64,000 bases of DNA from assembly GCF_045037415.1 (NCBI RefSeq), contig NZ_CP173438.1; one strand, given 5' to 3'. Source of the stretch: Escherichia coli. Its GTDB lineage: Bacteria > Pseudomonadota > Gammaproteobacteria > Enterobacterales > Enterobacteriaceae. Positions 1 through 3,000 of the stretch are shown here, piece by piece; the stretch's first letter is position 1; each line of letters starts with the position of its first letter. Position numbers: made by a program.

Positions 1-3000
1 CACTCATCCCGCAAATTCTTATCAGAAAGAATATCGAGAACTCTGAGTATTTGTCTGAACTGTGTCGATGAGTCCGACGGGAAGGCATTCCCTTCCAGAT
101 ACTCTTCTTTAAGATACAGTTTATTCTTTTGAAGCAAGTCTGCGCTTATTTTTGCCCTGTTATTCTGGATAAACTGCATCAACAGATACCAGGAAAATAA
201 GCATGCGCGTTCACTGCCCGCGATCCAGGATATTTTTTCCAGGGGGACCAGGAAGGCCAGGGCCTTCAGACGCATACCAGAAATTATTTGTTCAAGTTCA
301 AAATCTGAAAGTGTGATGTTCAGATTTTCTCTGTTTTTTTTTATGTAAGCGATAAAACGTTCCGGGGGATCATAAACATTAAGGGGCAGTACGGAGATAT
401 TACGCTCTCCAAGATAATAAGAGTAATACGCATTTGTTCTTTCATTCATAACCTTATCCGACAAAATTTTCTGAACCATCCTCTTTCTCCGGTTGCTTAA
501 AAATTAAACATAATAAGGTGATAATAACATGATAAAAAGAAGTTTATAATAGTATATTAAGGTGGTCAATAAAAAGGCAATCTGCGCGCTGTACAGTCAT
601 TCTGACAGGAAATGCAGGAGGAAGGGAAGGTAACCGGCTTCGTTATGCTGACAGGAATACCTGTTATCATGGAAGTGCACTCATGTGGCCGACGTAGCTT
701 AAGAGGATGGAAGAGTGGAGACTGCAGACAGGGGGTATTGAAAGGTAAACATGTTTCGCCCGCCAGCTGCACCGGGGGCCAGCATCACTTTTTTTACGTT
801 GTAACCCGGTATGCATTCCGGCTTTGATGATTACAGTCAGAGGGCAGCAGACTGACGTTATTTAACCGGACAGAAAAATTATGGACACTGAAATATCGTC
901 TGTTAATACCTCGTTTGTCGGTGTGGTATTCCCTGTATTACCGGCGTCACCGATAAAGAGAGTTATAAACGCCAGAAAGGTACCTCCTTTATGCCGGGGA
1001 ACACTTACGGAAAATGAAGTCTGAAAAGGAGCACAATGAAAAGAGGCGTGTCCCGTAAATATAACGAATCATCGCAGGATATGCATTATCAGGTGATACC
1101 AGAGGGCATTAAACTGTCGCCACGGATAAGAATATACAACATTTCTGATAACAAAACATCATAACGTGTTTCAGATATGTTCCGGCATCAGTCTGACGGA
1201 TATTATTTCCCGGGAAAACAAACCTGCTACTGTGACGGTTAACTGTATCTGCATAAATTATTTATGATGAAAGAACAGTATTACGGATTCAAATATCATC
1301 CTGTTTGCATTCAGGCGGACATTCCCGGATGCCGGAAAGAATATCCTGCAGGCTGAGTGAGTCTCTTCCACAGTGCCGGGATCGCTGTCGCCACGTACAT
1401 ATTGTCACCAGGATGGGTATGTACCGCAGCATGCCATTTCTGGTGAATAACCGCACCTGCACATTCAGTCTGCTGAGAACCTGGCGTGCATCGGGCTGTA
1501 AAGAACATCCCTGTCCGTGGCTCCTCTGGTGGTGTTGCCTGCTCAGCAATGACAGGATGCCCTTAAGACGCCCGTCATGGCTCAGTATGATGACGACGAA
1601 CACGCTCTGCAGGTGAGCATGCGGGGCCGGGAGCATCATCATTTCCGTATTTTGTCACACCTTCCGGAAGCAACCGGCATCAGTTGCGGTTATCGTCAAC
1701 CGTTGTGCGGTATGCCAGGAGCACGTACTGATCCATCAGATCCGTCAGTGCTGCGCTCTGCCTCTGACGGTTGATGATCCATTCCTCCAGCTCTTTTTCT
1801 GATTTCCGTTTCAGGTTCTCTTTCCAGTCTTCAAGGCTGTTTCCGGTCATTAAATCAAGCCAGCAAAGCCAGACCAGTTTGAGGCGCAACTCCGTGCCAC
1901 CAAACTGACGGAAGAGGCTAATCAGTTTATTTGCCAGAGAACGCTGCCTCAGACGTTCACATTCAGACAGGAGAATGCCTTCCAGCATCGGATGATGAAC
2001 CAGCAGATGTTCACTGGTGCATAAATTCACTATCAGATCATCATCCAGGGGCGGCGTGGCCCGTTTGTCAGGGCCATAAATCAGCCGGTGCAGGCTCTGG
2101 GGTACGATGGCAATCTCCGGTTTTTCACCATTGAATGACACCCACCCGGGCGTCAGATTATGGAAGTAGTAGATATTCGGATGACACACGCCCCAGGATA
2201 CGGCGTGCCGGGTGAAGCCGGTCAGCCATTTCTGGTAGCTTTCGTGGAGCAGTTCGTAACGGGTCTGATACTGTTGTTTCATTTTCATATTCCTCACGGG
2301 GGATATAACAGGCAGCAGAATGCCGCCGGCAGGCCGGGGATTACGTCTGCTGCGGGTGAACGGATAACGGTCAGAAATTACGGGCGGGGCTGTGCAATAC
2401 GCGCCTGTAGCCAGGCTTCCACTTCACTTTTCAGCCAGCGGGAGCTGCGGCCCAGCTTGATGGGAGCCGGAAAGGCCCCATCCCTGATGAGCCTGTAAAA
2501 CCACTTATCTGTCAGGCCGTTCAGTTGAGTGATAAATGCCATGTCGACCATCTGGTCATCCATCAGTGAAACTGGGGTGGTCATGAGAATGTTCCTCCGG
2601 ATGTTGTTAATCTCAACCGGCGTTGGTGATGAAAACAACGCACCACCTTCACCGGCATAACAACCGGGGAGAAACGTAAAAAATAATCGGGAATGTGACC
2701 GTCAGGAGATAAACGGGGGGATTGCGGTGGCTGAGCCGTACCGGTATGTCGGGTGGTTGTTGCGAAACGATGCTTCCGCACGCGCACGCGATAAAGGAGG
2801 GAGGACTTTCGTGAGACAAGGGGAAAACTAGCGTTCTGATAATTGCAGAGTTGTTTTTGAAGGCGGTTGTGGTATATCAGCCTGTGACCTGTGGGCAGGC
2901 GACAGTTATCACTGGTGGGATAAGACTGTCTGATTGGTATTATAAATATATAAGAGAGATCAAACACATGAGATCAAATACATGAGTTCATATATGTGAA

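Follow-up and report, generated by a model that had tools for sequence, protein, structure and literature searches.

The locus described here occupies positions 1–2584 of a 64,000-nucleotide stretch of Escherichia coli DNA (contig NZ_CP173438.1, RefSeq assembly GCF_045037415.1), which we refer to as the window. Three genes lie on its minus strand: alpA, a gene for a 200-amino-acid (aa) protein of the Aec62 family, and, at the window edge, a gene for a 305-aa protein. The original prediction, made from the sequence alone, had described this arrangement as an AlpA-like regulator followed by two unassigned cargo genes. We found that the region is an ordinary, already sequenced island and that the cargo interpretation is wrong. 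The features of the locus are as follows.

1–479, minus strand (ATG at 477–479): first 159 codons of the 305-aa protein (WP_000250227.1; 'Ybl124' in UniProt), the full length being taken from the identical EC958 sequence.
480–580, minus strand: AT-rich leader 5' of the 305-aa gene, with a probable promoter of its own inferred from sigma-70-like sites at 580–551 and 569–541.
562–1356: non-coding filler specific to this island variant, with no relative outside E. coli islands.
1357–1679: 3' flank of the alpA/200-aa cassette, which it accompanies in E. coli islands (86% identity in locus L003; 70% over 1400–1595 in locus L002).
1577–1774, plus strand: RefSeq 65-aa hypothetical protein (WP_001333284.1), antisense to the 200-aa gene, whose 3' end it overlaps.
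1680–2282, minus strand: gene for the 200-aa orphan protein (RefSeq WP_000813435.1; UniProt 'Aec62' family), 95 bp downstream of alpA.
1757–2560: minimal segment inverted relative to other genera, with the left breakpoint within 562–1756 and the right one between about 2715 and 4377.
2312–2353, minus strand: imperfect inverted repeat or hairpin in the alpA/200-aa intergenic region (~95 bp), GCAGCAGA ... CCGG-loop-CCGG ... UUCUGCUGC.
2378–2584, minus strand: alpA, coding for a 68-aa Phage_AlpA/HTH_17 DNA-binding protein by Pfam and PHROG profiles.

The first 3 kb of the window is 100% identical to the E. coli sequence type 131 (ST131) strains EC958 and JJ1886. Genes to the left of the window edge were taken from the identical EC958 annotation, and the coordinates of distant window features were remapped by alignment, not by the EC958 offset. 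As anticipated, the edge gene runs off the window start with at least 159 codons, and leftward extension through the EC958 sequence recovered the full 305-aa protein. An island backbone of the CP4-57/CP4-44 type was defined by linkage to a tRNA gene and by AlpA, YagK/YfjJ, a YfjP/YeeP GTPase, DUF932, an antirestriction protein, RadC/JAB, DUF987 and a CbtA/CbeA-type toxin–antitoxin (TA) pair. All of these components are annotated in order in EC958, in agreement with the gene list of CP4-57 of K-12. We consider it likely that positions 1–2584 are the central hinge of an ST131-type E. coli leuX island of this kind, made up of two conserved backbone modules and a junk spacer, with no cargo. All three genes are genuine rather than chance open reading frames (ORFs), as they have full-length homologues in many genera and are free of indels among five E. 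coli variants.

Profile searches confirmed the AlpA-like gene predicted at 2378–2584. Its product matches Pfam Phage_AlpA (PF05930; E=1.2e-7, residues 13–59), HTH_17 (E=8.5e-7) and PHROG 66, 'excisionase and transcriptional regulator' (E=1.8e-9). With 68 aa, against about 60–80 residues for the Phage_AlpA family, and a helix-turn-helix (HTH) domain that matches the profile, it belongs to this family, whose members are known as excisionases or activators. The surroundings had been called a P4-like island, which held in that an AlpA-family regulator sits in a tRNA-integrated island. However, 'P4-like' proved loose: the P4 satellite core was taken as psu, delta, sid, epsilon and the alpha primase-helicase, plus int and alpA, and none of psu, sid, delta, epsilon or the alpha primase-helicase is annotated across 76 kb of EC958 around the locus, where the backbone is of the CP4-57/CP4-44 type.

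The second gene codes for a protein without a recognizable family on the same strand, as had been expected. RefSeq annotates 200 aa; an in-frame ATG at 2288 gives the 202 aa of the original prediction, and the longest ORF begins with a GTG at 2297. The protein has no match in Pfam, NCBIfam, PADLOC or PHROGs and no PADLOC-DB 2.0 defence family at E up to 1, and a PDB sequence search with a profile of the family returned noise only. Homologues share 47–100% identity, are all about 200 aa long, carry no Pfam domain and occur only in Enterobacterales, where full-length members at 47–65% aa identity are found in many genera. An exhaustive profile scan of 1.84 billion representatives retrieved only 124 proteins, most of them fragments and none bridging to another family. 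The AlphaFold2 model is weak (predicted local distance difference test score, pLDDT, 64), and a fold search of the AlphaFold Database (AFDB) matched only the protein's own family. Within the family, a core LLxHHPMLEGxLLSECxRLxQ...RLKLVWLCWxDL is conserved, and C33, H96, H97, C108 and C140 are invariant, as are E101 and E107. A phage origin was considered and rejected, the protein having a single weak match in 50,697 phage records. Besides 'Aec62', UniProt and AFDB use the names 'Malate transporter' and 'Secretoglobin family protein' for some members; both seem to be misannotations passed on between entries, since this soluble, helical protein is related to neither family. A literature search for 'aec62' matched only unrelated hash strings. 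A 37% relative is present in CFT073, and a second, divergent paralogue (about 33% identity) lies a few kilobases downstream, after the zinc-ribbon genes, in loci L018 (13073–13591) and L037 (130–723).

The position of the 200-aa gene is nearly invariant. In 41 of 42 loci, from about 20 genera of Enterobacterales (Yersinia, Serratia, Hafnia, Klebsiella, Salmonella, Photorhabdus, Providencia, Pectobacterium, Pantoea and others), alpA lies 75–187 bp upstream on the same strand. The 42 loci are those fetched with enough upstream sequence; they come from a scan of one genome per species, from contig look-ups and from E. coli records. Judged by this synteny, the 200-aa gene is conserved backbone and a fixed partner of alpA, not accessory cargo. 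The inverted repeat between the two genes (2312–2353) is kept in sequence in 22 of 25 genera-level loci and folds as a hairpin (fold z = -1.6). RNAalifold gave no consensus structure for the alpA/200-aa gap; the hand-drawn hairpin is paired in 80% of cells, with covariation not above that of shuffles (74/500). The element may be an attenuator, a terminator or an operator. The divergent loci L029 and L032 seem to retain the pairing with different bases.

Searches with the 305-aa protein produced no usable match in Pfam, NCBIfam, PADLOC or PHROGs, no PADLOC-DB 2.0 defence family at E up to 1, and, with a profile of the family, only noise in a PDB sequence search. Full-length homologues occur in many genera at 49–79% aa identity; pairwise identity in the family falls to about 20%, and still all 23 of 23 distinct sequences match the close-homologue profile (22–540 bits). 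Foldseek against AFDB retrieved relatives of about 300 aa across Gammaproteobacteria, some named 'CopG family transcriptional regulator'. The protein consists of an N-terminal all-alpha domain and a C-terminal ribbon-helix-helix (RHH) domain, the C-terminal part lying outside the window. A profile of 14 C-termini matches pRN1 ORF56 (E=6e-4), SvtR (E=9e-4), CopG, HP0222, Mnt and MazE antitoxins, and the AlphaFold2 model (pLDDT 83) has coil, helix and helix at residues 259–303. With a strand-helix-helix segment of about 45 residues and both profile and structure matches, the C-terminus joins the RHH superfamily, and its approximately 45 residues resemble the RHH repressors CopG, Arc/Mnt, pRN1 ORF56, SvtR and the TraM N-domain. 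The C-terminal 45 residues are thereby shown, at the borderline of detection, to form an RHH DNA-binding domain.

The 305-aa gene is tied to its neighbour on the other side. In 26 of 29 loci, the island GTPase is preceded at a distance of 36–134 bp by an ORF of 290–343 aa, and this gene order marks the 305-aa gene as conserved backbone, the constant first gene of the GTPase-Ag43-DUF932-antirestriction-RadC-CbeA/CbtA arm, and not as cargo. Its leader is also kept: 499–563 and the leader of the orthologue in Serratia share 88% identity, and the alignment to Salmonella extends to 561. With its own promoter, the 305-aa gene would therefore be no downstream target of AlpA read-through. A role of AlpA as a Q-like antiterminator acting across the spacer was considered and dropped, because the P. 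aeruginosa AlpA that works in this way is an unrelated, larger protein of eight helices with which only the name is shared.

The suggestion that the three genes form a trio conserved as a unit did not hold. In the Salmonella locus L037, a 79%-identical 305-aa gene and alpA are divergent and 419 bp apart, and alpA is followed by the 200-aa gene, YfjJ and zinc ribbons. Aligned to L037, window positions 10–561 and 4378–5519 run in one orientation and 1757–2560 in the opposite one. Among loci in which the GTPase is present, those with a 200-aa protein less than 75% identical to that of the window (other genera) have the GTPase arm divergent from the alpA/200-aa pair in 23 of 23 cases, and those at 75% or above (the E. 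coli clade) are colinear in six of six. A synthetic query for the ancestral orientation was covered by one place in none of 5,426 E. coli genomes at megablast sensitivity. Because orientation splits perfectly by identity and the ancestral orientation was found in none of these genomes, the inversion of the alpA–Aec62 cassette appears to be old, to have happened once in the E. coli lineage and to have become fixed. The trio is a lineage-specific arrangement, an apparent operon created by a fixed inversion, and all three genes lie on one strand because the cassette was inverted in the E. coli clade. A site-specific invertible, phase-variable switch was rejected on the same 0/5,426 count; the flanking inverted repeat (790–821/2652–2683) is only 72% complementary.

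Between the two modules, positions 480–1679 contain only short overlapping frames, as had been noted for 480–1680, and no conserved ORF. The interval had been taken for either a decayed gene or a non-coding spacer, and the second description stood: Rfam gave no match over 1–4300 at E up to 1, and indels were confined to the spacer. Among five E. coli variants, the spacer carries indels of 15, 2, 1 and 1 bp (19 indel columns), and the three genes carry none; variable columns per 100 bp number 4.1 in the spacer vs 1.2 in the 200-aa gene and 2.3 in the 305-aa gene. Indels of 15, 2 and 1 bp in other strains fall within 562–1356, and insertion sequences (IS) of the IS66 or IS3 type interrupt the spacer at about 243, 675 and 896 (window about 722, 1154 and 1375); an IS1 insertion also occurs among other strains. 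The flank at 1357–1679 is less conserved than coding sequence. The 65-aa ORF at 1577–1774 is probably spurious, because a 1-bp deletion at 1622 frameshifts it in strain 2023CK-01509. We conclude that the spacer is non-coding filler. A decayed defence gene in this slot was also rejected: the 'ATP-binding protein' pseudogene of the sister island is an IS21 IstB remnant, and the window spacer has no relatives beyond E. coli islands.

In the model that these observations suggest, the two modules stand back to back and divergent in most Enterobacterales. The inversion in the E. coli lineage would then have brought alpA, the 200-aa gene and the 305-aa gene onto the same strand, leaving between the modules 1.2 kb of non-coding spacer, which is now drifting and gathering insertion sequences. 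By analogy with its family, AlpA would bind DNA and switch on island functions such as integrase or excision; from synteny, it may also switch on the adjacent module of YfjJ (inovirus Gp2/Rep-like) and zinc ribbons. Aec62 would be made from the same transcript as AlpA and might act with it in a regulatory or replication step, as its invariant synteny suggests. The 305-aa protein, given its RHH domain and its position, may bind the AT-rich region before its own gene and set expression of the GTPase arm from its own promoter. In this strain, AlpA's classical target is probably defunct and its control of excision vestigial, because the integrase beside leuX is truncated. For the same reason, the island is likely fixed in place although alpA is intact.

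Several points weigh against this picture. The locus sample was gathered through the 200-aa protein itself and is silent on how often alpA occurs without Aec62, and synteny alone speaks for a joint action of the two proteins. The GC-rich hairpin between their genes could be a terminator, which argues against simple co-transcription, and with a low-confidence Aec62 model a fold-based clue could have been missed. The window AlpA shares only 37% identity, over just 30 residues, with the characterized AlpA of CP4-57 and lies about 45 kb from the truncated integrase, so the assumed AlpA target may not apply. On the side of the 305-aa gene, the count of promoter-like sites does not exceed that of shuffled sequence (8 vs 5.5±2.4). 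Finally, the RHH assignment is borderline, Pfam RHH_1 (PF01402) staying below threshold with 3 of 12 members at E<=0.1 (best 0.04) and none at 0.001.

The genes directly downstream of such regulators had been described as often being defence or addiction functions. This is true of relatives, in which defence systems lie downstream of the alpA module, but not of the two genes here. In relatives, cargo sits beyond alpA–Aec62, often after YfjJ and the zinc ribbons, and usually consists of anti-phage systems, with at least 11 system types in the slot across about 25 loci:

L005: BREX.
L006–L009: Dnd.
L010: Gabija.
L013: ZacB/ZacC.
L014, L015, L016, L020, L025, L029 and L031: type I restriction-modification (seven loci).
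L017: Lamassu and an ATPase system.
L023 and L024: PDC-M27.
L025: PD-Lambda-4.
L026: Hachiman.
L028: Dsr1.
L032: PDC-M54.

This clustering of defence systems beside the alpA module would favour reading the 200-aa and 305-aa proteins as accessory cargo, a novel defence or addiction function under AlpA control, as would the lack of a known family for either protein and the location of defence genes (AbpAB and RnlAB) in the stretch that separates alpA/yfjJ from the GTPase in CP4-57 of K-12. However, cargo varies among islands, and these genes are constant (41/42 and 26/29); neither protein matches a PADLOC model, and the 305-aa gene has its own conserved leader and stands downstream of alpA in the E. 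coli clade only, owing to the inversion. We therefore regard cargo as highly improbable. The interval 480–1680 might instead hold a decayed gene or an unrecognized small gene or RNA, since 1,285 genomes retain it at ≥97% identity, its block 1357–1680 is common to other island variants and RefSeq annotates the 65-aa ORF there. High identity is, however, expected among recently diverged island copies. The spacer is more variable than either gene and carries frame-breaking indels, its annotated ORF has a frameshift in another strain, it tolerates several IS insertions, Rfam is silent and the equivalent slot of the sister island holds only the IstB remnant; a hidden gene is thus extremely unlikely.

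Two further readings accept the genes as constant and assign them other roles. alpA and the 200-aa gene could be a TA-like stabilization pair, in which the small HTH protein neutralizes and represses a larger effector with a Cys/His core, so that the island is retained. The order of a small DNA-binding protein followed by a larger one is strictly conserved, both genes are intact despite the dead integrase, and the seven invariant Cys, His and Glu residues would suit a catalytic or metal site. Type II pairs, however, typically overlap or leave a short gap, and here 75–187 bp with a hairpin separate the genes; the 200-aa protein has no toxin-family similarity in Pfam, PADLOC or NCBIfam, and its structural relatives are of its own family only; CbtA/CbeA is already on the island; and the known roles of AlpA-family proteins lie elsewhere, in excision or activation. 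Such a pair is quite unlikely. The 305-aa RHH protein and the GTPase might likewise be a self-contained two-gene system, a partition/maintenance or abortive-infection module, rather than a regulator and the first structural gene it governs. Their pairing is invariant with a gap of 36–134 bp, RHH proteins are commonly antitoxins and ParG-type partition adaptors, the GTPase G domain weakly matches LeoBC (E=1.2e-8) and LeoA of the Eleos system, and the 305-aa family is spread widely in Gammaproteobacteria. Against this, the GTPase matches are limited to a generic G domain, with Era/Der/MnmE-like models of NCBIfam far under their cut-offs, and neither protein matches a full-length PADLOC model, which leaves the proposal unlikely. 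A joint reading goes beyond the backbone interpretation that we prefer. Aec62 would be the obligate, hitherto unrecognized partner (sensor or co-activator) of this AlpA subfamily, timing excision, replication or cargo expression in defence-carrying Enterobacterales islands, with the Cys/His cluster as a possible metal or redox site; separately, the RHH-protein/GTPase pair would be a new self-contained maintenance or abortive-infection module widespread in Gammaproteobacteria. We hold it to be rather doubtful.

Of the known elements, CP4-57 of K-12 (sisters CP4-44 and CP4-6) is the natural comparison, with intA, alpA, yfjI, yfjJ, abpAB, rnlAB, the yfjP GTPase, yfjQ (DUF932), antirestriction, RadC-like and TA genes. 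It resembles the window island in integration at a tRNA/tmRNA gene (tmRNA, transfer-messenger RNA), in its AlpA-family, YagK/YfjJ, YfjP/YeeP-type GTPase, DUF932, antirestriction, RadC/JAB, DUF987 and CbtA/CbeA-type TA genes, and in having a variable slot that separates the alpA side from the GTPase arm. It differs in its AlpA, only distantly related to that of the window, and in the position of alpA, which adjoins intA there and lies far from the integrase here. Moreover, the gene after its alpA is YfjI (DUF3987), unrelated to the 200-aa protein, and it has no 305-aa RHH gene before yfjP, YfjH being unrelated; YfjI and YfjH were considered as homologues, and no homology was found.

Islands integrated at the tmRNA gene in Pseudomonas carry IntY, AlpA, an inovirus Gp2-like protein and RadC, bear defence systems and are transduced by a jumbo phage, according to a 2025 PNAS report (PMC12595487). 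They share with the window island a core of integrase, AlpA, inovirus Gp2-like protein and RadC, and most of them have recognizable anti-phage cargo. They belong to another genus and use another integration site, and the text consulted reports neither Aec62-family nor RHH/GTPase genes (PMC12595487). A 2023 survey described defence-carrying 'integrase-only' islands at E. coli tRNA hotspots, which have an integrase, varied defence cargo and no recognizable transfer genes (PMC10121019). The island type studied here is similar in its tRNA-gene site, its integrase, its lack of recognizable transfer genes and its varied defence cargo, but the cargo side of the window copy consists of iron-uptake and sugar genes, not defence genes. 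The survey leaves the backbone undescribed and does not mention alpA in its text (PMC10121019).

This work is mainly a correction: 'hypothetical' genes beside an edge regulator resemble cargo or defence candidates, and comparison across genera shows them to be fixed island machinery. The new points are modest, namely the alpA/Aec62 cassette, the RHH/GTPase pairing and the fixed inversion. The alpA/Aec62 and RHH/GTPase pairs mark an Enterobacterales island family with a slot rich in anti-phage systems; the pair adjoining this slot can therefore be used as an anchor for finding new defence genes. The Aec62 and 305-aa families, each found in roughly two of every three complete E. coli genomes, are obvious candidates for controlling how CP4-type islands excise, replicate or are silenced. 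Caution is also warranted, as the gene order of one species can mislead: the apparent operon here arose from a fixed inversion.

The remaining features of the island, within the window and to its left in EC958, are the following.

Left arm after the 305-aa gene, in order, from the EC958 annotation: YeeP/YfjP-type GTPase, Ag43/Cah autotransporter, DUF905 and DUF932, antirestriction protein, RadC/JAB protein, DUF987 and YeeU/CbtA toxin–antitoxin pair.
Right of alpA: hha fragment, 64-aa zinc-ribbon ORF, YagK/YfjJ (inovirus Gp2-like), two zinc-ribbon genes, IS66, phytase-like esterase, fec operon and sugar-utilization genes.
3328–3507, plus strand: fragment of hha (Hha/YmoA nucleoid-associated modulator) between alpA and yfjJ, partial in the EC958 annotation.
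3840–4034, minus strand: 64-aa ORF with a CxxC...CxxC zinc-ribbon motif and a hydrophobic tail, at 71–75% aa identity in sister E. coli islands.
5066–5467 and 5455–5889, plus strand: two tandem overlapping zinc-ribbon paralogues after the YfjJ Rep-like gene, 31% identical to each other.
47097–47558, minus strand: truncated tyrosine integrase, an annotated pseudogene and the sole integrase of the island.
47745–47829, minus strand: tRNA-Leu(CAA) (leuX), beside the truncated integrase.

The cargo side of this window thus lies to the right, starting at 6.2 kb with IS66, the phytase-like esterase and the fec operon. The zinc-ribbon pair at 5066–5889, whose homologues carry DUF7828/Zn_ribbon_11, looks like backbone, because the same pair follows YfjJ in most relatives. 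The 64-aa ORF at 3840–4034 has no family match. An intact copy of hha is present in sister islands (L003, 6942–7154). The window lacks the 4.3-kb ISEcp1/IS5/blaCMY-23 insertion of EC958 (window 22727–22734) and contains about 1.4 kb, at 32759–34187, that is absent from EC958. In a deletion variant, L042 (E. coli K207-3, 4083–6297), the 305-aa gene and 153 bp of its leader are joined directly to a truncated integrase next to tRNA-Phe, which shows that pheV/pheU-type sites, too, are used by this backbone and that its alpA side can be lost entirely.

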